Positions 9,593-27,026 of a stretch of DNA of 64,000 bases are shown here, piece after piece (positions within the stretch are counted from its first letter, which is position 1; each line of letters opens with the position of its first letter). Made by a program: the position numbers and the translations under genes. This DNA is from Nanobdellota archaeon (GTDB taxonomy: Archaea; Nanobdellota; Nanobdellia; Pacearchaeales; GW2011-AR1): the NCBI GenBank assembly GCA_043810695.1, contig JBDRNV010000002.1:5015-69014 (forward strand), in the 5' to 3' direction. Under the pieces are notes generated by a model. It ran no database searches. It saw only the letters and a program-made list of their open reading frames with translations, and was not told the DNA's origin.

Positions 9593-10399
9593 TTATTTTA
9601 TAGACTTCATTTCTCTCCAGGCAAGTTCAAACAATTGCTCAAGCGCCTGAGCAAAGAATTCTGTGTTTATCCAAACACCAATATCATAGTTTGGATGGAA
9701 TTTTTCATCATCAAGGAGCATGAACATAAGCTGGGTGGAATCAATTACTGTAAATCTTGCCTTGAATTTTTCTATATTTTTTACTTCTGCAACTTTTTTG
9801 AATTCTCTTGCAACTTTTATATTATTATTGTTTATTGGTGCAGCTATCCTTATTTTTACCCCTCTTTTTTTACATTTTTCAAGACTTGGCATTAATACTT
9901 CTAATTTTCTATTAAGCCCTTCAGCTGTTGTCATGATTGTTATTGTTTCTTCAGCGTCTCTTATCATCATATCAAGATGATTGTAAAGATTTTGTCTTCC
10001 TTTAAGACTTCCAGATAAATCAGAAGGCTCTACAAATTTCACTCCTTTTGTAAAGAGTGAGGTTAGTTCCTCAAGAACCTCGTCATTTTTCAGAGCTTCA
10101 AGTCTTTTGGATCTTTCTTTTGCCTCAACCATAAGATTTTTCTTTGCTCTTTCAACAACTTCTGTAGGTTTTAATGCGAAGAATTTTATAGGTTTGCCAA
10201 GCTTCATGACAATAAACCCTTTCTTTTCAAGGCTTTCAAGGATATCATATGTTCTTGAACGTGGAACATCAGAAATACTGCTCAATTCCCCGGCTGTTGA
10301 AGTTCCCCTCGAGAGAAGGGCTGTCCATACCTTAACTTCATATAAATTCAAATCAAAAATTTTTCTTAATCTGCTTAAAAATTCTTCCTTTATTATCAT
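9593..10399 (-). CDS. trmB: TrmB-family transcriptional regulator
   Basis: 'YEVKVWTALLSRGTSTAGELSSISDVPRSRTYDILESLEKKGFI' wHTH typical of TrmB. Confidence 0.75.
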   Translation of the reverse strand: MIIKEEFLSRLRKIFDLNLYEVKVWTALLSRGTSTAGELSSISDVPRSRTYDILESLEKKGFIVMKLGKPIKFFALKPTEVVERAKKNLMVEAKERSKRLEALKNDEVLEELTSLFTKGVKFVEPSDLSGSLKGRQNLYNHLDMMIRDAEETITIMTTAEGLNRKLEVLMPSLEKCKKRGVKIRIAAPINNNNIKVAREFKKVAEVKNIEKFKARFTVIDSTQLMFMLLDDEKFHPNYDIGVWINTEFFAQALEQLFELAWREMKSIK

Positions 10400-10465: not shown

Positions 10466-13345
10466 TTACCCGCTGGTAATGATAATTATTATGCCTCTTT
10501 TATCTCTTATATTAAAAGAGATTTTGTTTTTAAATTTTTCCTTTAAATGAATAGTATCGAGGATGTTTTTTATTTCAATCTCCAATTTTTTTGAGTTTGT
10601 TCTCTCTTTTATAAAAGATTTTTGCGTTTCCAATATTTTTTTGAAATCTCCGTCGGTAATTATAATCAGCTCCACACTGTCTTTTTTCTGTAAACCAATT
10701 TTTTTTCTGAAATCCTGTACTTTTCTTGATAACTCGCGCGCATAACCTTCTGCTTCAAGTTCAGGAGTTAGTTTAACGTCTAATGTTATACCCAAAGAAT
10801 CTAATTTAGGAACTTTATCAAAATAAACTTCCTTAACATTTAATTGAGATTTAATTAATTCTTTAATATCATTACTAATATCAAATTTAGCAGAAATATT
10901 TGCTGATTTTAATGGCCATTTTAAACCAATTTTAGCAGTTTCTCTTTCATATAACCCTTTTTCAATTATCCCAAATACATTTTCAAATTCTCCTTCTAAT
11001 TTTTTATTAATCTTCTTTACATCTGCTTTTGGCCAGGAACACAAATGAACACTTTCTTCTCTAACAATTTTCTTTTTTCTCAAATCCTGCCATACTGCTT
11101 CTGTTAAAAAAGGAATAATTGGAGAACAAATTTTAATTAGAACTGCATAAACTTCTTTTAAAACATAAAGACAAGATTTATCTTCATTTGCTATTCTATC
11201 TCTTACAAATTTGATATATCTCCTGCTTAAATCATTCAACCAAAAATCTTGTAATAATCTAGTAGCTGTAAAGTAGCGCATTTCTCCAATTTCTTTTGTT
11301 GCATTTTTTATAAGAGAATTTAATTTTGATAAAATCCATTTGTCTTCTACTTTGGATATTTTAGTTTTACTTTTATTTTCAATAAGCCGGCTTATATTGA
11401 ATAAAATATTTAGATTATTTTGCGGTTCTTTGATAACCTTAAATCCAAATCTTAGTTCAGAAGCAGGATCTTGCAGGCAGTATAATAATCGCATTGGATC
11501 TGCCCCCATTTTTTCAACAGCGTCGTTAAACCATATTACATTTCCTTTGCTTTTATGCATTTCTTCTCCATTTTCATCTTTTACAGATTCATATCCTAAA
11601 ATTGATTTAAATGGAGCCTTGCCTGTTATTGTTACAGAAGCCCACATTAAAGCATTAAACCATCCCCTGTATTGCCCGGGCAGATTTTCAGAAATAAAGT
11701 CAGCAGGAAACCATTTTTTCCAATATTTTTTATCATTTAAATAATTCAAAGTTGAAAATGGAACAATTCCAGCATCAATCCATGCATCTCCTGTATCAGG
11801 TATTCTTTGAACTTCTTTTCCGCATTTTTTGCATTTAATCTTTATTTCATCTATCCATGGACGGTGTATTTCTTGAAGAGCATCTACTTTCTTTTTATCA
11901 ACAGCTGATTCTCTTAATTCTTTTAAATTTCCAGCAACAAAAATTTCTCCGCATGTGCATTCCCAGATTGGCAAAGGCAACCCCCAAAATCTTTTTCTTG
12001 ATATAAGCCAATCATCCATATTTTCAAACCAATCTTCCTGCCTTATTTTTCCATATTCAGGATACCATTTAATTTTCTTATTTTCACTAATTAGCTTATT
12101 TCGAATTTCCTTGCATTTTATATACCACTCATCAACCAACCTAAAAACTAATTCTTCACCGCATCTCCAGCAGTGAGGATATCTATGAGAATAATTTTCT
12201 ATCTTATACACAAATCCTCTTTTTTCCATGTCTTGCATTACTTCTTTATTAACTTCTGAATATTTTTTATTGCTGAAATTTGAATAATCATTTCCATAGA
12301 AACCCATTTCATTTAATGGAGATATTGAAGGTAGTTTCAATTTTTTTCCTAATTGATAGTCTTCTGAACCGCATCCAGGAGCGCAGTGCACGATTCCTGT
12401 TCCTTCTTCTTCAGAAGCAAAATCCCATAATACAACTTTATGAGGAGAATCTTTTTGCTGTTTTAAGTAAGAATAAGGCATTTCATATTTTATTCCTTCA
12501 AGTTCTTTTCCTTTTTTTCTTTCAATAATTTTGTAATTCCCTTTTATTTCTTCAAGTCTTTTTTCAGCAAGCCAGTAATATTCATCCTCCTGCTTTATTT
12601 TTACATAATCAATCTTTTCATTTACAGCTATAACAACATTTGCAGGAACAGTCCATGGAGTAGTTGTGAAAATTAAGAAATATTCTTTTTTCTTTCCAAG
12701 AACAGGAAATCTCATAAATAATGCTTTATGGCTTACCTCCCAATATCCTTCTGTTACTATATCATGCTTTGAACTTGCTGTCCCGCATCTCCAGCACCAC
12801 GGCACAGCATCTTTTCCTTTATACAACCAGCCCTTGTCATAATATTTTTTCAATAAAAACCAGTTATGTAAATTGTTATTTTTAGACATCGTATAATAAC
12901 TATTCTTCCAATCCATCCATTGCCCAAGTTTTAGAGATTGTTCTGTCTGTATAGCTGAGAATTTTTCAACTCTTTTCTTGCATGATTTTACAAAATTAAG
13001 AACCCCAAATCTTTCAATATCTTCTTTATTTTTTAATCCCAAATCTTTTTCTTCTTCTCTTTCAACCCATAATCCCTGACAATCAAAACCATTTTGCCAC
13101 CTTAAATCATAACCATTCATAGCCTTAAATCTAAGAAATAAATCTTTGTAGGTTCTTCCTCTTGCATGATGAACACCCATCGGGTTATTCGCAGTTATAG
13201 GTCCATCAATAAAACTACACCTTTTCTTACCCCTATTTTTCTTAACTAGTTTTTTAAATATTTTGTTTCTTTCCCAAAATTTCCTTATTTCTTCTTCTAT
13301 TTGTTTAAAGTTGTACATTTTACAAAACATAAACAAATCACTCAT
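10466..13345 (-). CDS. ileS: isoleucyl-tRNA synthetase (type 2)
   Basis: 'DGPITANNPMGVHHA' (GPxTAN..G.HH), 'WCWRCGT', 'MHKSKGN' KMSKS variant; real start may be ATG at 13318 (MYNFKQ). Confidence 0.8.
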   Translation of the reverse strand: MSDLFMFCKMYNFKQIEEEIRKFWERNKIFKKLVKKNRGKKRCSFIDGPITANNPMGVHHARGRTYKDLFLRFKAMNGYDLRWQNGFDCQGLWVEREEEKDLGLKNKEDIERFGVLNFVKSCKKRVEKFSAIQTEQSLKLGQWMDWKNSYYTMSKNNNLHNWFLLKKYYDKGWLYKGKDAVPWCWRCGTASSKHDIVTEGYWEVSHKALFMRFPVLGKKKEYFLIFTTTPWTVPANVVIAVNEKIDYVKIKQEDEYYWLAEKRLEEIKGNYKIIERKKGKELEGIKYEMPYSYLKQQKDSPHKVVLWDFASEEEGTGIVHCAPGCGSEDYQLGKKLKLPSISPLNEMGFYGNDYSNFSNKKYSEVNKEVMQDMEKRGFVYKIENYSHRYPHCWRCGEELVFRLVDEWYIKCKEIRNKLISENKKIKWYPEYGKIRQEDWFENMDDWLISRKRFWGLPLPIWECTCGEIFVAGNLKELRESAVDKKKVDALQEIHRPWIDEIKIKCKKCGKEVQRIPDTGDAWIDAGIVPFSTLNYLNDKKYWKKWFPADFISENLPGQYRGWFNALMWASVTITGKAPFKSILGYESVKDENGEEMHKSKGNVIWFNDAVEKMGADPMRLLYCLQDPASELRFGFKVIKEPQNNLNILFNISRLIENKSKTKISKVEDKWILSKLNSLIKNATKEIGEMRYFTATRLLQDFWLNDLSRRYIKFVRDRIANEDKSCLYVLKEVYAVLIKICSPIIPFLTEAVWQDLRKKKIVREESVHLCSWPKADVKKINKKLEGEFENVFGIIEKGLYERETAKIGLKWPLKSANISAKFDISNDIKELIKSQLNVKEVYFDKVPKLDSLGITLDVKLTPELEAEGYARELSRKVQDFRKKIGLQKKDSVELIIITDGDFKKILETQKSFIKERTNSKKLEIEIKNILDTIHLKEKFKNKISFNIRDKRGIIIIITSG

Positions 13346-20449: not shown

Positions 20450-20587
20450 CGCCTCAGGCAGGAATCGAACCTGCGAACCCCGAAGGGTCGGGATCTTTGC
20501 GTTTTCTCCAATAAAGGAGATGTCGTAAGAAGAACCTTGGTTCTTTTTACTTAGCAATCCCGTGCAATACCATTATGCGACTGAGGC
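20450..20587 (-). tRNA. tRNA-Ser (anticodon GCU) with ~57-nt intron
   Basis: Hand fold: GCCTCAG acceptor, CGGGA/TCCCG anticodon stem, loop TTGCTA|A, long variable arm ACCCTTCGGGGTTC, T-arm GCAGGTTCGATTCCTGC; 138 nt minus 81 nt mature. Confidence 0.75.
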
Positions 20588-21576: not shown

Positions 21577-21912
21577 TTACTCTCTTTTGAAAATTTCACA
21601 TAATCTTGTTTCAACTTCTTTTATTTTTTCTTTTTTTAAAGAACCAAACTTATAAGATACTATTGTTTTTCTAAGTGTGAATAATCTAGATGGTCTTATA
21701 AAACTTTTGATTTTTAAATTTCCTAATCTTAAGTCTTTTTGGAATAATAAAATTTTATCTTTATCTGGCCTGTCTTTTGTGGTAATTTGACAAAGAATTA
21801 TATCATCCCCTTCTAAATTAGCAACAACCAAAGCAGGTCTTTTTATGGTAGATGTTAAATCAGAAAAGGGAAAATAAGTAACTACAATATCTCCTTTTAC
21901 AAATCTTTCCAT
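21577..21912 (-). CDS. mazF: PemK/MazF-family toxin
   Basis: 'VKGDIVVTYFPFSDLTSTIKRPALVV' SH3-like N-terminus of MazF/PemK. Confidence 0.7.
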   Translation of the reverse strand: MERFVKGDIVVTYFPFSDLTSTIKRPALVVANLEGDDIILCQITTKDRPDKDKILLFQKDLRLGNLKIKSFIRPSRLFTLRKTIVSYKFGSLKKEKIKEVETRLCEIFKRE

Positions 21913-22130
21913 GCTTCATTGTCCTCCTTACTTAGCCAATCAATTGCTAGTAATCTTTGGTCGGCTAATATAGGGGATTTTTCATATTTATTATCATCTT
22001 TGTCAAGATGTTCCATTTGTTTTATTCTTTTTTCAATAACTTTTCTGACAAAATCACTCCATTTTATTTCAGAATATCTTTTCATTTTCTTATATATATC
22101 ATCATTAATTGATAAGGTTATATTTGTCAT
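21897..22130 (-). CDS. cognate antitoxin (putative)
   Basis: Overlaps toxin start by 16 nt; tracked start 22136 is TTG, ATG at 22130. Confidence 0.5.
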   Translation of the reverse strand: MTNITLSINDDIYKKMKRYSEIKWSDFVRKVIEKRIKQMEHLDKDDNKYEKSPILADQRLLAIDWLSKEDNEAWKDL

Positions 22131-22134
22131 AACC

Positions 22135-22156
22135 AAATAAGTGGTACCACTTATTT
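22135..22156. promoter_or_regulatory. perfect 22-nt palindrome overlapping the TATA-like box of the mazEF-like operon
   Basis: aaataagtggt|accacttattt directly upstream of the antitoxin ATG. Confidence 0.5.
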
Positions 22157-22248: not shown

Positions 22249-23049
22249 ATGGAAACCGAGAATCTGGGATATGTTAAAGGATTGGGAGAAATTCATAGAA
22301 TTAATGCTCCATTTGTAGTGCAATTGGGAGCTTTTAGAGAAATAGGAATAAAGGCACCTGTAAGCGTAAGAGATACTTCTTTAATAAGGCTCAGCGGAAA
22401 ATCCACAGAAGGAACAAGGACATGTCACGCTCCTGTTTACCTTAAGAATTCTCCTACAATAGTTGCGAGAATGTCTCCTTTGGTAAGAAATTTAGGAATG
22501 GCACAAAAAGCAGTGAATGCTCACAAAAGCAGTGAATATCCTGTTTTTGGTAGCTCGATTTATGCCCAGTGGGAAAAGATTGCAAAACAGGACAAGGGAA
22601 AGAAGCCTGAGAAAAGAAGGGCAATCATACTTCCTGAAAGAAAAGATTTTGACATACATAGGGATTCAGACGAAGCAGAATTTTTCTGGCAGGACAAAAG
22701 AAAAGAATATTTTAAAAGATTTGTTTCAGCAGATAAAGTCATAGCGTATCAAATCGACCCAGAAACGGTTGATTCTCAAGATGGAGCAATTGTGAATTAT
22801 CTCTGGTTCGACGATCCCGAGGATGGTTCTTACTTGTACCTTAGGAGCAGGAGCTTGTACTATGACGACAGGGCTTTCGGGGTGTTGGAGAAAACCAGCG
22901 AAGCTGGTTTGCAAAAAATTTCAGGAAATTTGGTCAGGCATTATACTCAAAGAGAAGCAAAAAAATATACTAATATTCTTCAGGATGTTATGTCTGGAAA
23001 AACAGGAACTTCAAAATTAGAAAAAGTGCTTAAGCATTTTAAAAAATAA
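22249..23049 (+). CDS. DGR-type variable (target) protein candidate
   Basis: Contains the variable repeat 22801-22872 near its C-terminus; locally higher G+C by eye than neighbours. Confidence 0.6.
   Translation: METENLGYVKGLGEIHRINAPFVVQLGAFREIGIKAPVSVRDTSLIRLSGKSTEGTRTCHAPVYLKNSPTIVARMSPLVRNLGMAQKAVNAHKSSEYPVFGSSIYAQWEKIAKQDKGKKPEKRRAIILPERKDFDIHRDSDEAEFFWQDKRKEYFKRFVSADKVIAYQIDPETVDSQDGAIVNYLWFDDPEDGSYLYLRSRSLYYDDRAFGVLEKTSEAGLQKISGNLVRHYTQREAKKYTNILQDVMSGKTGTSKLEKVLKHFKK
22801..22872 (+). other. variable repeat (VR) of a diversity-generating-retroelement-like pair
   Basis: 72-nt ungapped match to 23310-23381; 10 of 11 mismatches lie at adenines of the other copy. Confidence 0.75.
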
Positions 23050-23309
23050 AAACAGAAAGCAATTTAAACATAAGTTTCTTTTTTTATCTGCCTTGACTCT
23101 TATTTGAAGCATATGTACAAAAACATATGCTGGTGAGAATAATAGAAAGGCCACACGCCAGTTTATTAAGGCATTATTCAAGTTTATTTTAAGTCATAAA
23201 ATTCAGAAGCGACTTGCGAGAAGCTTCGGTGCGCAAATTAAATTTTGCTGTGTGCAGGCAAGATTCCTGACGTGAAAATTATTCATGAGATAAATTGGCT
23301 ACAAAAAGT

Positions 23310-23381
23310 CTCTGGTTCAACAATCCCGAGAATGGTTCTAACTTGAACCTTAGGGACAGGAACTTGAACAATGACAACAGG
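23310..23381 (+). other. template repeat (TR), non-coding
   Basis: AAY-rich (reads LWFNNPENGSNLNLRDRNLNNDNR); the tracked ORF 23295..23480 is probably not a gene. Confidence 0.75.
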
Positions 23382-23577
23382 AACAGCTATGCTTTTGGAA
23401 TGGCCTTAAGTCAGGGCATTTTATATTTAGCATTAAAATTATTAATCATTCTTACATTAATCTTTAAAAATCCCGAATAGTTCTTTTTATAATCATGCAA
23501 TTAAAAAGGGAAGTTGAATGTGGTAAATTAAAGGAGGTTGACTGTTAAGGAACCTTGGTGCCTTACAGTGTCTTACA

Positions 23578-26442
23578 ATGGCTTACATAAAAAAACTGGT
23601 GATACATGGCTTTAAGAGTTTTCCAAGAAAAACAGAGATTCCTTTTACAAAAGGAATAAATATAATTTTAGGCCCGAATGGCTCTGGAAAATCAAACGTA
23701 TCTGATGCTTTATGCTTTGTTCTGGGAAGACTAAGCATTAAATCAATGCGTGCTGCAAAAGCAGGCAATTTAATTTTTATGGGAACAAAAGAAGCCTCTC
23801 CTGCAAAAGAAGCCTCTGTTGAAATAATTTTTGATAATTCAGATAAAACATTTTCTTTGGATAAAAATGAAATAATTATTAAGAGAATTGTAAGAAGAAA
23901 CGGGCAAAGCATTTACAAAATTGATAATGAAACAAAAACAAGACAGGAAGTTCTTTCTTTGCTTGCTCAGGCTGGAATAGATCCACAAGGATTTAATATT
24001 ATTCTTCAGGGAGAGATACAGAGTTTTGTGAGAATGCAGCCAGAAGATAGAAGAACAGTAATTGAAGAAGTTGCAGGAATATCTGTTTATGAATCAAGAA
24101 AAGAAAAGTCACTTCACGAGCTTGAAAAGACAGAAGACAGACTTAAAGAAATCAGCTCTATTCTCAGAGAGAGAACTTCTTATTTGAATAATCTTGAAAA
24201 AGAAAGACAGCAGGCACTAAGATTCAAGAAACTTGAGGCAGATATAAAAAAGTTTAGAGCAAGTATAATCTATTTCAACCTTCATAAAAAAAGAAAAGAA
24301 AATGAGAAAATAAACTCTGATATAGAACAAAGAAATAATGAAATAGAAAAAATAAAGAAAGTAATCATTGGAATTGAAACAGAAACAAAAAATTTTTCTT
24401 TTAAAATAGATAACATAAATTCTGAAATACAAAAATCTACAGGACTTGAACAGGAAAAACTTAATCAAGAAATAGCCAATTTAAGGGCAGAACTTGCAGG
24501 GCTTAATGTAAAACTTGAAAACCAAGAATCAAGACTTTCTAATTTATTAAAACAAAAAGAAGAATTCCAAAAATCGCTGAAAGAATCAGAGCTTTCAATA
24601 AAAGAGCTTCAGAAAGAGTCTCCTACACCAGAAAGAAATGCAAAAGAAATAGAGGAAAAAAAGAAAGAACTTGAGAAGCTTGAAGAAAAAAGAAAAAAAT
24701 TCTACATGATTAAATCAGAAATAAACTCTGTCAAAGAAAGAATTGAAGATAAAAATTCTCTTCTTCAGAATTATACAAACGAATCTAATTTTTTAATAAA
24801 GCAAATTGAATCCCTTTCAATACAAATTTTTGATAAAAAAGCAAATTCTGAAAAACTAGGCAGGTTTAAAATCTCTTTATCAGAAAAAAAAGAATTCCTT
24901 AATAGTTTAGTAAAAAAAGAAATAGAACTTGAAAAAAATAGTTCTATTAATTTATCAGAAATAGAAAATCAAAAAAGAATTATAGAAAAAATATCAAAAT
25001 TAGATATATGTCCTGTATGTAAAAGCAAAATAACTCCAAAACATATGGAAGAAATAAAAAAAGAAATCATCCCCCACATAGAATCTTTAAAAAAGACAAT
25101 AGAATCCTCTGATTCTGAATTAAAAACAATATATCAGAAAAAAGAAATAATAATAAAAGATATCGATGAACTAGCTCAGCAGATATCAAAAACAGATACA
25201 GATCTAAATAAACTTTCAAATATAAATGATAAAAAAAATCAGATTAAAATTTTATATGAAAAATTAGAAAATCTAAAAAAAGAGCTAGCAGAATTAACTA
25301 AGAAAAAAACTAATCTTGAAAGAATTTTTGAAACAGACTCTAATATAGAGCAAAAATATGAGACTTTGAAAATAGAAGTTCAGGAAATATCTCTAAGAAC
25401 CAAAAAAACACTAAAATCAGAAGTTGAATTTAAACAGAGAGAAATTGAAAGAATAAAAATTTCTTTGAAACAAATATCTCGGGAAGAGACTGATGCAAAT
25501 GAAGAATTATTCTCTCTTAAGAAAATATTTGAAGAAAAGAATAAAATTTTAACCAAAAAAAGACAGCAGGAAGAAGAATTAAATAAAAAATTCGAAGAAA
25601 TGCTTTCTGAAAAAGAGAGATTGCAGAAAAAAATAAGAGAAAAAGAAACAGATACTCTTTCAAAAAAACATGCAATTCATATTATAGAACTTGAAATAAA
25701 TGAATTCAAAATTGAAAAAGCAAGAGTTGATGCAGAGATAGAGAATTTTGAAACAGAGATGCTTGAATTTTCAAATGTTGAAATAATAAAGACAAATAAG
25801 GATGTTCTGGTTGAAAGGCTTGCTAAATCACAGGAAATTATTTCAAGAGTAGGAACTGTCAATCTCCGCTCCCTTGAAGTTTATGATTCAATAAAAAAAG
25901 AGTATGATGTTGTAAAAGAAAAAGCAGGAATAATAGAAAAAGAAAAAGATAATATATTAAAAGTAATACATGAAATAGATGTAAAAAAGAAAAAATCATT
26001 TATTCAGACACTTAAAAAAATAAACGAGCTTTTTTCAAGAAATCTATCTCAATTGATTCCAAAAGCAGAGGTTTTCCTTGAGCTTGAAAACAACCAAAAC
26101 CCGTTTGAACCAGGTTCTGGAGTTCAGATAATTGTAAAGACAGGACACGGGAAATACTTTGATGTTAAATCTCTTTCAGGAGGAGAACAGACTCTTGTTG
26201 CTCTCTCGCTTATATTTGCGATTCAGGAATATCGTCCTTACTACTTTTATCTTCTAGACGAAATTGATGCAGCTCTTGACAAAAGAAATTCAGAAAGGCT
26301 TGCCGGGCTTCTTAACAAATACATGCTTAATGGGCAGTATATAGTTATCACACACAATGATGAAATTATTTCAAAGGCAACAAATCTTTATGGAATAAGT
26401 ATGCATGATGGAATTTCTAAAATTATTAGTCTTAAAGTGTAG
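23578..26442 (+). CDS. smc: SMC-family ATPase with central CxxC in place of a hinge domain
   Basis: SMC head motifs 'GPNGSGKSN', 'ILQGEIQSF', 'EEVAGISVYESRK', 'LSGGEQTLVALSLIFAIQ', 'LLDEIDAALD'; CPVC at aa 478-481 of 954 (25009-25020). Confidence 0.8.
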   Translation: MAYIKKLVIHGFKSFPRKTEIPFTKGINIILGPNGSGKSNVSDALCFVLGRLSIKSMRAAKAGNLIFMGTKEASPAKEASVEIIFDNSDKTFSLDKNEIIIKRIVRRNGQSIYKIDNETKTRQEVLSLLAQAGIDPQGFNIILQGEIQSFVRMQPEDRRTVIEEVAGISVYESRKEKSLHELEKTEDRLKEISSILRERTSYLNNLEKERQQALRFKKLEADIKKFRASIIYFNLHKKRKENEKINSDIEQRNNEIEKIKKVIIGIETETKNFSFKIDNINSEIQKSTGLEQEKLNQEIANLRAELAGLNVKLENQESRLSNLLKQKEEFQKSLKESELSIKELQKESPTPERNAKEIEEKKKELEKLEEKRKKFYMIKSEINSVKERIEDKNSLLQNYTNESNFLIKQIESLSIQIFDKKANSEKLGRFKISLSEKKEFLNSLVKKEIELEKNSSINLSEIENQKRIIEKISKLDICPVCKSKITPKHMEEIKKEIIPHIESLKKTIESSDSELKTIYQKKEIIIKDIDELAQQISKTDTDLNKLSNINDKKNQIKILYEKLENLKKELAELTKKKTNLERIFETDSNIEQKYETLKIEVQEISLRTKKTLKSEVEFKQREIERIKISLKQISREETDANEELFSLKKIFEEKNKILTKKRQQEEELNKKFEEMLSEKERLQKKIREKETDTLSKKHAIHIIELEINEFKIEKARVDAEIENFETEMLEFSNVEIIKTNKDVLVERLAKSQEIISRVGTVNLRSLEVYDSIKKEYDVVKEKAGIIEKEKDNILKVIHEIDVKKKKSFIQTLKKINELFSRNLSQLIPKAEVFLELENNQNPFEPGSGVQIIVKTGHGKYFDVKSLSGGEQTLVALSLIFAIQEYRPYYFYLLDEIDAALDKRNSERLAGLLNKYMLNGQYIVITHNDEIISKATNLYGISMHDGISKIISLKV
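26401..26442. repeat. smc 3' end (genuine), left copy
   Basis: 42 nt, 41/42 identical to 26471-26512. Confidence 0.9.
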
Positions 26443-26470
26443 CATAACTTCGTCCAAGCTTGGCCGTCGT
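26443..26470. repeat. 28-nt near-palindromic element (CCAAGCTTGG core)
   Basis: cataACTTCGTCCAAG|CTTGGCCGTCGT; related elements at 56115-56153 and 52339-52366. Confidence 0.7.
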
Positions 26471-26512
26471 ATGCATGATGGAATTTCTAAAATTATTAGT
26501 CTTAAAGTATAG
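26471..26512. repeat. second copy of smc 3' end
   Basis: atgcatgatggaatttctaaaattattagtcttaaagtatag; followed by a TATA-like ttatatac and the RelBE-like cassette. Confidence 0.9.
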
Positions 26513-26548: not shown

Positions 26549-26782
26549 ATGGATACAACAATACAAATAAGCAAAGAACTTTTAGGAAAATTACAAAAAA
26601 TGAAGATGCATAATAAAGAAAGTTACGAGGATATAATTTGGGATTTAATAGAAGATAGAATGGAACTCTCTGAAGAAACAAAAAGGGATATTGCAGAATA
26701 TGAAATAGATTTAAAGAAAGGAAAATCTAGAAAATTCCATAAATGGGAAGATGTTAAAAAGGAGCTAAATCTAAATGTATGA
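26549..26782 (+). CDS. antitoxin of RelE/ParE module (putative)
   Basis: 77 aa, overlaps toxin start by 8 nt. Confidence 0.55.
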   Translation: MDTTIQISKELLGKLQKMKMHNKESYEDIIWDLIEDRMELSEETKRDIAEYEIDLKKGKSRKFHKWEDVKKELNLNV

Positions 26783-27026
26783 AATAATTCTTTCAGAAAA
26801 AGCTAAAAAACAATTAAAAAAATTAAATAAATTAACTCAGGAAAGAATAGGTTCTGTTATTGAAAGAATAAAAATTCGTCCGTTTTCTTACGATATAAAA
26901 AAACTTCAAGGAACATCTTATTACAGAGCAAGAGTGGGTGAATATAGAATTATTTTAGATATTCAACAAAATAAGTTAATTATTATTGTAATAGAAATAG
27001 GACATAGAAAAAATATTTATGATTAA
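26775..27026 (+). CDS. relE: RelE/ParE-family toxin
   Basis: 'YYRARVGEYRIILDI...IIVIEIGHRKNIY' typical RelE C-terminal half. Confidence 0.75.
   Translation: MYEIILSEKAKKQLKKLNKLTQERIGSVIERIKIRPFSYDIKKLQGTSYYRARVGEYRIILDIQQNKLIIIVIEIGHRKNIYD

Follow-up and report, generated by a model that had tools for sequence, protein, structure and literature searches.

Diversity-generating retroelements (DGRs) with AvpA-like target proteins have been described for DPANN archaea by Handa et al. (2016, PMC5006420) and, according to papers citing them, by Paul et al. (2015, 2017). AvpA has a C-type-lectin fold. Its variable repeat (VR) covers residues 181-203 and is followed by a tail of 46 residues, the DNA of which holds a target hairpin (PMC5006420). 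AvpA homologues were counted as DGR-associated in that study only if a reverse transcriptase (RT) and a template were found nearby (PMC5006420). Here a locus without an RT is described, located on 64,000 nt of a Nanobdellota archaeon genome (GenBank assembly GCA_043810695.1, contig JBDRNV010000002.1, positions 5,015 to 69,014), referred to as the window. It consists of a gene for a variable protein with a predicted C-type-lectin fold and, next to it, about 330 nt of non-coding sequence (23089-23418), in which the RNA motif RT-16 is followed by a template repeat (TR). With a probability of roughly two in three, we regard this locus as a working DGR module that lost its own RT and is served by an RT encoded elsewhere.

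Targets remote from the RT are known from DGRs of the Treponema and Legionella type (Wu et al. 2018, PMC5758913). For incomplete loci of Thiohalocapsa PB-PSB1 the use of RT and/or TR in trans was argued (Dore et al. 2024, PMC10907252). A large DGR survey requires a repeat within 1 kb of the RT (Roux 2021, PMC8144416). Hence, elements lacking an adjacent RT are invisible to surveys of this design. The RNA motifs RT-1 to RT-19 were named for their proximity to RT genes; a link to a DGR was made for RT-10 only, and the function of the others, RT-16 included, stayed a matter of speculation (Weinberg et al. 2017, PMC5737381). Functional work on RT-16 was not found in the literature.

Variable repeat and template repeat

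The repeat pair described in an earlier note on this DNA, which was made from the sequence alone, was found at its place and extends one nucleotide beyond the 72 nt given there. VR 22800-22872 and TR 23309-23381 (Table 1) form an ungapped alignment of 73 nt that contains 11 mismatches. Ten of these are located at TR adenines (23319, 23322, 23331, 23340, 23346, 23356, 23362, 23367, 23370 and 23376), of which six are changed from A to G and four from A to T in the VR. The sole mismatch outside the adenines is TR G23355 versus VR A22846. Both counts agree with those of the note. With 24 adenines in the TR block of 73 nt, the hypergeometric probability for at least 10 of 11 mismatches at A is 2.8e-5. 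The gene copy has A at just one of the 11 mismatches. In frame, the TR reads LWFNNPENGSNLNLRDRNLNNDNR and the VR LWFDDPEDGSYLYLRSRSLYYDDR; the proposed reading of the intergenic copy as AAY codons (Y, pyrimidine) is thereby borne out. The extra 9 nt noticed 3' of the block (AACAGCTAT) are present as well, and past this insertion the homology resumes with GCTTTTGGAATG in the TR and GCTTTCGGGGTG in the VR.

The 3' ends of the two repeats are asymmetric, with GGGGTG in the VR and GGAATG in the TR. The same asymmetry, GGGGT versus GGAAT, was detected in nearly all of the about 50 pairs examined, and CGGGT versus CGAAT in a second target family described below. Exceptions are GGAG in L009 and a few other variants at the two GGAA adenines. 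Almost every VR has G at both of these positions, and the two template adenines are therefore not part of the mutagenised stretch. The ends resemble the initiation of mutagenic homing (IMH) site and its template counterpart IMH*, and together with the hairpin following the VR they presumably function as DGR elements.

Recent activity

Three VR alleles were found in strains that share about 99.8-99.9% identity elsewhere, namely in the window, in L001 (an ENA assembly) and in L007 (a JGI metagenome). Overall, L001 and the window share 98.7% identity. Counted from past its divergent first ~600 nt, only 4 of 4702 nt differ outside the VR, in comparison with 17 of 73 inside (Fisher P 1e-28). All 14 mismatches between the L001 VR and the window TR are at template adenines. 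L007 shows 8 differences to the window in about 3500 nt of flank. It covers 29 nt of the variable sequence and differs from the window there at 5 positions, all of them TR-adenine sites. Towards the window TR its VR has six mismatches, again without exception at adenines. Taken over the three alleles, adenines of the window TR thus account for 30 of 31 mismatches. Differences among the strain VRs are confined to TR-adenine sites save position 22846, where the L001 VR has the G of the template; the non-adenine mismatch of the window is therefore a change on the VR side. The contigs of L007 and L013 end within the VR. Assemblies tend to break at heterogeneous sites. Three alleles in near-identical strains indicate that homing took place since the strains split, long after the RT left the locus.

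Absence of the RT and RT-linked relatives

A tblastn search with three RTs adjoining homologous targets gave no RT in the window (best E 2.6), and no RVT domain was detected by Pfam on 29 open reading frames (ORFs) of the window, among which housekeeping genes and two toxin-antitoxin pairs were recognised. The span free of RT comprises about 22 kb upstream of the target gene and about 40 kb downstream of the template. A remnant of an RT between TR and SMC gene was also considered and rejected, as tblastn detected none there, unlike in L015. No Avd-like match was obtained among the window ORFs within about 5 kb of the locus. An Avd-type ORF was not called between target and RT in RT-linked relatives either. 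The earlier note had reported neither an RT nor an Avd-like ORF in the window; for the RT this stands, and for Avd it holds for the vicinity of the locus, where it was checked.

In contrast to the window, the order target, RT-16, TR and RT of the RVT_1 type was found in L003/L004, L018/L030 and L028. L003/L004 represent the closed 710-kb Pacearchaeota genome CP061211.1. In these loci the RT directly follows the TR, has 336-352 aa and carries the motifs LGNLTSQ and YVDD. Thus, a canonical version of the element exists. The clade of this RT comprises more than 7595 proteins at E < 1e-40, with 62-76% identity to the query among the best 120. The RT of the host could not be singled out among these homologues because of the uniformity of the clade and the lack of a genome link.

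The closest arrangement without RT is that of L002. Its target is 64% identical and the order RNase HII, target, TR and SMC is the same as in the window; no RT was found within 10 kb on either side. With the same RT-less gene order shared at this distance, the absence of the RT at the window locus is old. A TR without RT is also present in L008, L009, L011 and L125. In L015 the RT is reduced to an N-terminal remnant of 35 aa (residues 23-57) after the TR.

Distant members of the target family with 38-41% identity were observed in L005/L019 (10001-10828), L020-L023 and L027, with no TR or RT nearby. In L005 the gene is flanked by weak RT-like tblastn matches, one at 9646-9783 (E 0.013) and one at 10879-10932 (E 1.1). 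Loci of this type may serve as remote targets or may once have been DGR loci.

RT-16 RNA and long-range pairing

The RT-16 match directly 5' of the TR is of full length (model positions 1-158 of 158, gathering score 50) and the only one in the window. The 8-bp hairpin mentioned in the earlier note is formed by GCATATGT (23109-23116) and ACATATGC (23123-23130) and turned out to be part of this RNA (Table 1). L002 has a different hairpin at the P1 site, CATGCC-GAGA-GGCATG.

Two helices that are both outside the pairing of the Rfam model connect the RNA with the sequence 3' of the TR. For the first, called clamp here (23147-23153/23401-23407), all seven pairs form in the window. The segments were anchored by conserved motifs and not by pairing, and across 49 loci the seven pairs are 96.9% canonical. 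With permuted partners the value was 80.7% and did not exceed 84.7% in 300 trials; in shifted registers it was 23-48%. One of the clamp pairs covaries, being T-A in 25 and C-G in 24 loci with zero exceptions. The clamp shares nucleotides with the local P1 pairing of Rfam; both pairings may therefore alternate.

The second helix closes the whole stretch. Its arms covary across loci (GCCCTGAC/GTCAGGGC, GCCTCGACC/GGTCGAGGC, GTCTTAGCAG/CTGCTAAGAC and TCCTGAAAA/TTTTCAGGA), and the duplex energy of an arm is -15.7 kcal/mol with its own partner versus -10.9 kcal/mol with partners of other loci (P = 2e-10). Scoring of this helix by the longest helix was abandoned, as chance helices dominate in AT-rich sequence, and was replaced by duplex energies and an anchor-based pair count. 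A stretch of 334 nt folds with -97 kcal/mol (z = -4.69), and its minimum free energy (MFE) structure contains both clamp and closing helix. Through the two long-range helices, the TR 3' end and the conserved RT-16 core come to lie side by side.

In about 20 related loci with an unambiguous 5' arm, a TATA-like box precedes this arm by 25-30 nt, a distance that is partly reliable where determined automatically since an inner helix was sometimes taken as the arm. With the TATA-like box 26 nt upstream and the T-run downstream in the window, we infer that the stretch of about 330 nt is transcribed as an independent RNA.

In the target family, the distance from RT-16 core to TR is 166-235 nt in loci without RT versus 115-156 nt in RT-linked loci. 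The additional length consists of two covarying hairpins, CAGGC...CCTG or CGAGC...CTCG, and CATGAAA...TTTCATG (23227-23290 in the window, with equivalents in L002, L009, L010, L011 and L015). Shared descent or adaptation to the missing cis RT may be reflected by this longer stretch.

Target protein

For the target gene 27 homologues of about 265 aa were found; the named ones are from Pacearchaeota or Nanoarchaeota genome bins. An identical protein is not among the recorded sequences. Their alignment shows a hypervariable block, NYLWFxxPxxxSxLxxxxRxLxxxxRAFGVL, on a fixed scaffold. An AlphaFold2 model calculated from this alignment has a pLDDT (predicted local distance difference test) of 90.4; residues 216-230 are disordered, and there are two helices at the C-terminus. 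Foldseek gave a single significant match in the PDB, 5ioo_A, which is AvpA (E 8.7e-6, probability 1.0, TM 0.52/0.63); the second-best match had E 1.6. Thus, the protein models as a C-type-lectin-like fold, for which the earlier note had proposed to check its C-terminal part, with the archaeal DGR variable protein as the top match. At sequence level, a profile of 28 family members gave no PDB match at E <= 1. From the AvpA motifs GxxVVVYAH, HPxxxPFxG and RFxGV, only the last is resembled in the target family, by the RAFGV strand. An AvpA-like fold without sequence similarity indicates a separate family sharing the fold. Judged by the model, the relation to AvpA is one of fold and architecture.

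The hairpin with GAA loop behind the VR (Table 1) has counterparts at a similar offset in L003, L008, L009, L010, L011, L015, L016 and L018. The stems differ in sequence among these eight loci, which represents compensatory changes.

Three truncated family members, P0012, P0016 and P0021, end in Asn-rich TR-like sequence such as WFNRPDYESNLNFRNRNLNNNNRALGMTLC. They are probably assembly joins of VR and TR, or VRs newly overwritten by unmutated template.

Taken together, 22800-22872 and 23309-23381 are a DGR target/template pair, based on the adenine-specific mismatches, the AvpA fold match, the conserved hairpin, RT-16 and the homologous targets linked to an RT. Save for RT adjacency, every testable feature supports the DGR interpretation of the earlier note. 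That the pair arose by duplication of a gene fragment or by gene conversion, with an adenine bias caused by AT-rich drift, is hardly credible. Drift directed to A/T does exist in a genome of 30% G+C. Yet the mismatches of the three alleles cluster at adenines of one copy only and include changes to G, T and C, and the identical adenine pattern recurs in about 45 independent loci. RT-16, the AvpA-like fold and the RT-linked homologues likewise indicate a DGR and no mere duplication.

RT-less cassettes in other genomes

GTDB species representatives were scanned for exact matches to a 20-mer of the RT-16 core, which yielded at least 119 stretches. About 49 of the matches listed are true RT-16 loci in DPANN genomes; the following counts refer to these and are lower bounds. 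An RT is located about 200 nt after the RT-16 core in approximately 33 of the 49. A locus was regarded as RT-less if no RT was present in the 8-kb stretch read for it, of which 1.9 kb or more had to be downstream. This was the case for 11 loci, and two more (L081, L146) have only RT fragments. Adenine-specific VR/TR pairs are present in 10 of the 11. The pairs were filtered for at most two non-A mismatches per 45 nt.

Loci with and without RT were compared regarding signs of decay. Non-adenine mismatches amount to 11/925 in RT-less and 8/1195 in RT-linked loci (P 0.25), and 57% versus 56% of the adenine sites are changed. With profiles trained on RT-linked loci only, the RT-16 scores are 76.2 bits for RT-less and 76.1 bits for held-out RT-linked loci (P 0.97). 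Downstream of the RT-less templates, unrelated housekeeping genes were found, such as SMC, Mre11/Rad50, tRNA synthetases and ribosomal proteins. A hidden conserved substitute enzyme at this position was ruled out, as the genes there are unrelated. Hence, the RT-less state is a class and not an accident, and accounts for about a quarter of the RT-16 loci among the matches listed.

Several genome bins contain more than one cassette. JAHIEH01 has the RT-less cassette L063 and the RT-linked L144, which makes a shared RT plausible. In JBDKJQ01 the cassettes L076 and L125 are both RT-less and belong to different target families, and JAYENS01 has the RT-less L077 and the truncated RT locus L146. For the proposal that RT-less "satellite" DGR modules are a stable and common class in DPANN archaea, the odds appear even to us. 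Such a module would consist of a target gene and its own transcribed RNA with RT-16 scaffold, own template and 3' clamp. RT-16 and clamp would act as a portable handle, by which one genomic RT could serve several templates.

Alternatively, the RT could belong to a mobile element, an archaeal virus or plasmid that is present intermittently, while the chromosome keeps RNA and target. DGRs are known on archaeal viruses, with ANMV-1 as the example cited by Handa et al. (2016, PMC5006420), and an embedding of RT-less cassettes among housekeeping genes would fit. But in a scan of a viral collection of 2.9 million contigs with the RT-16 20-mer, none of the 19 matching stretches was a true RT-16, for which reason a viral origin of RT-16 was rejected. 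Moreover, RT-linked RT-16 loci are located on long chromosomal contigs, including the closed CP061211.1. We consider an RT of this origin quite improbable.

A second target family was noticed in the scan (L034, L038, L045, L063, L069, L076, L077, L085 and L143, from nine species-level genomes). Its proteins have about 207-226 aa with the VR at the extreme C-terminus, and the TR ends with ...TTTTC[GT]AATAG. Among the matches listed this family occurs only without adjacent RT, with unrelated housekeeping neighbours.

Proposed function and state of the template

The earlier note had left the choice between an RT elsewhere and a decaying orphan. The VR alleles of the strains, the gene order of L002 and the intact RT-less class favour the former. 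An RT encoded elsewhere in the genome would bind the RT-16 scaffold; it would be a member of the abundant clade with 62-76% identity that directly follows the TR in related loci. Synthesis of cDNA would start at the clamped 3' end of the template, the site expected from the analogous spacer in the Bordetella phage element, with misincorporation opposite template adenines. The cDNA would then replace the VR up to the invariant GGGGTG boundary, aided by the GAA-loop hairpin about 20 nt downstream. As a result, about a dozen residues of the ligand-binding face would be rewritten.

Several points weigh against a module that is working at present. The insertion 23382-23390 and a C-to-T change at 23396 are present in the TR and in neither the window VR nor the L001 VR, and the mismatch 23355/22846 is not at an adenine. 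As the GGAA adenines are fixed as G in nearly all VRs, the transfer boundary is located between 23379 and 23397, which is the interval with the insertion. If the transfer passes the insertion, no homing has occurred in the window strain since the insertion arose, and the template allele of the window may be newly disabled. The contigs of L001 and L007 stop before the TR, and their own templates are thus not covered. The RT was not located in the search, which covered the 64-kb window. In the genome scan, the exact 20-mer and the pair filter favour well-kept loci, so that badly decayed cassettes are missed. In addition, genome bins may be incomplete or mixed, and the counts refer to the matches listed.

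A freshly orphaned cassette would account for some of these points. The distant RT, in use until recently, or this template allele would now be dead, decay of the pair would be setting in, and the strain alleles would be traces of past activity. Destruction of the RT does occur in the clade, as seen from L015 (35 aa), L081 (C-terminal fragment) and L146 (residues 225-341), the last being accompanied by the RT-less L077 in JAYENS01. The unmatched insertion and C-to-T change and the single non-adenine mismatch are in line with it too. However, the structural elements of the window RNA are all intact. The insertion keeps the reading frame, and instead of random decay it could represent one patch taken over from a paralogous TR. 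The turnover of the VR is far above the background divergence, which leaves little time for decay, and RT-less cassettes as a class have no excess of non-A mismatches. An orphaned state of the window cassette is therefore unlikely in our opinion, and a module served in trans is preferred.

A possible source of the patch was found in L052 (ASMP01000002.1, Nanoarchaeota SCGC AAA011-D5), where the TR serves a different target family. The TR tail of the window, AACAGCTATGCTTTTGGAATGGCC (23382-23405), and that of L052 agree at 23 of 24 nt. Judging from this likeness, insertion and C-to-T change could be one patch copied from a paralogous template, which is a lead and not a result. The L052-like tail is a hint that templates exchange sequence and that the window genome has a second cassette.

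Features and neighbouring genes

Table 1 Features of the locus (positions in the window)
Feature	Position	Strand	Remarks
Target gene, 266-aa variable protein	22249-23049	+	ORF; no Pfam match
VR	22800-22872	+	inside coding sequence 22249-23049; adenine-templated variable positions 22810-22870
IMH-like invariant VR 3' end GCTTTCGGGGTG	22873-22884	+	encodes conserved AFGV strand
Target-site hairpin AAACCAGC-GAA-GCTGGTTT	22892-22910	+	8-bp stem, GAA loop, about 20 nt past VR
TATA-like box TTTAAA	23063-23068	+	26 nt upstream of first paired base of the RNA; putative promoter
Closing helix, 5' arm TGCCTTGACT	23089-23098	+	pairs with 23409-23418 in MFE fold; 10 bp
RT-16 RNA (Rfam RF03019)	23091-23307	+	directly 5' of TR; 76 bits, E 5e-10
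P1 apical hairpin, 8 bp	23109-23130	+	insertion in P1 loop of RT-16 according to cmscan alignment
Clamp helix, 5' strand AAGGCCA	23147-23153	+	abuts 5' side of invariant RT-16 CACGCC core
TR	23309-23381	+	intergenic, before SMC gene; 24 adenines, mostly AAY codons
9-nt in-frame TR insertion AACAGCTAT	23382-23390	+	missing from VR and from TRs of relatives
IMH*-like TR 3' end GCTTTTGGAA	23391-23400	+	T where VR and L002 TR have C
Clamp helix, 3' strand TGGCCTT	23401-23407	+	begins at first base after terminal AA of TR
Closing helix, 3' arm AGTCAGGGCA	23409-23418	+	followed by T-run
T-run	23419-23428	+	after 3' arm of closing helix; putative terminator

Directly upstream of the target gene, a MazF/PemK toxin gene (21577-21912, minus strand) and an overlapping small upstream ORF (21897-22136, minus strand) are located. 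The L001 equivalent of this small ORF has an RHH_12 match, and the MazF/PemK pair is missing at the equivalent position of L002. On the other side of the locus, the SMC gene ends with 43 nt (26400-26442, stop codon included) that recur at 26469-26511 with one mismatch. The duplicate is placed 69 nt downstream, just ahead of a VapB/DUF7557-ParE toxin-antitoxin pair (26549-27026), and looks like the footprint of an insertion at the gene end. The SMC protein of L002 (11179-15609, 1476 aa) carries an intein with Intein_splicing and LAGLIDADG_3 domains, which the window SMC of 954 aa is without. At 20450-20587 (minus strand) an Rfam tRNA match of 45.9 bits was found, which extends over 138 nt for a model of 71 positions and was not called by ARAGORN; it may be an intron-containing archaeal tRNA.

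Comparison with known systems

The locus has most properties in common with the AvpA-type DGRs of DPANN archaea. Adenine-specific differences, AAY-rich templates and a non-coding TR downstream of the target are found in both. The same is true for the target protein of about 260 aa with C-type-lectin fold (predicted here), internal VR and a tail of about 50 aa with hairpin, and for the RT clade, which is seen here in related loci. In contrast, the window has no RT beside the TR or elsewhere in its 64 kb, and its protein is without sequence similarity to AvpA.

In DGRs with remote or trans-acting components, one RT is likewise thought to serve sequences that are not adjacent, and for the Bordetella phage a plasmid-borne avd-TR-brt functions in trans. 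In Treponema, Legionella and Thiohalocapsa, the remote element is usually a VR matching the TR next to the RT, whereas the element of the window has its own TR and scaffold. Accordingly, it would be the RT alone that is shared among different template RNAs. A further difference is that the RT-less arrangement persists across species and still turns over.

Regarding its RNA, the window differs from the Rfam definition of RT-16 in that the motif is directly 5' of a DGR template with no RT alongside, and in that P1 nucleotides also pair, with covariation, with sequence 3' of the TR outside the model. The DGR RNA of phage BPP-1 (TR and spacer, RT-10) is comparable insofar as its template is flanked by structured RNA, by which the template 3' end is apparently set up for cDNA synthesis to begin. 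The IMH/IMH* asymmetry and the hairpin after the VR are similar as well. In contrast to BPP-1, where the scaffold is between TR and RT, it is located upstream of the TR here, and there is no Avd gene adjacent, neither in the window nor in its RT-linked relatives.

The orphan Rfam motif RT-16 is hereby tied to a role as scaffold of a DGR template RNA and is usable as an RT-independent probe for DGR templates. The covarying clamp, which sets the template 3' end against the core, offers a testable model of the start of cDNA synthesis. If scaffold-bearing templates are commonly located apart from the RT, the hypervariable proteins of tiny symbiotic archaea are undercounted and one RT can be shared among several templates. 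In general, DGRs of DPANN archaea, AvpA-type targets and remote VRs were already known; the locus is set apart from these by an RT-less element with its own template and scaffold.

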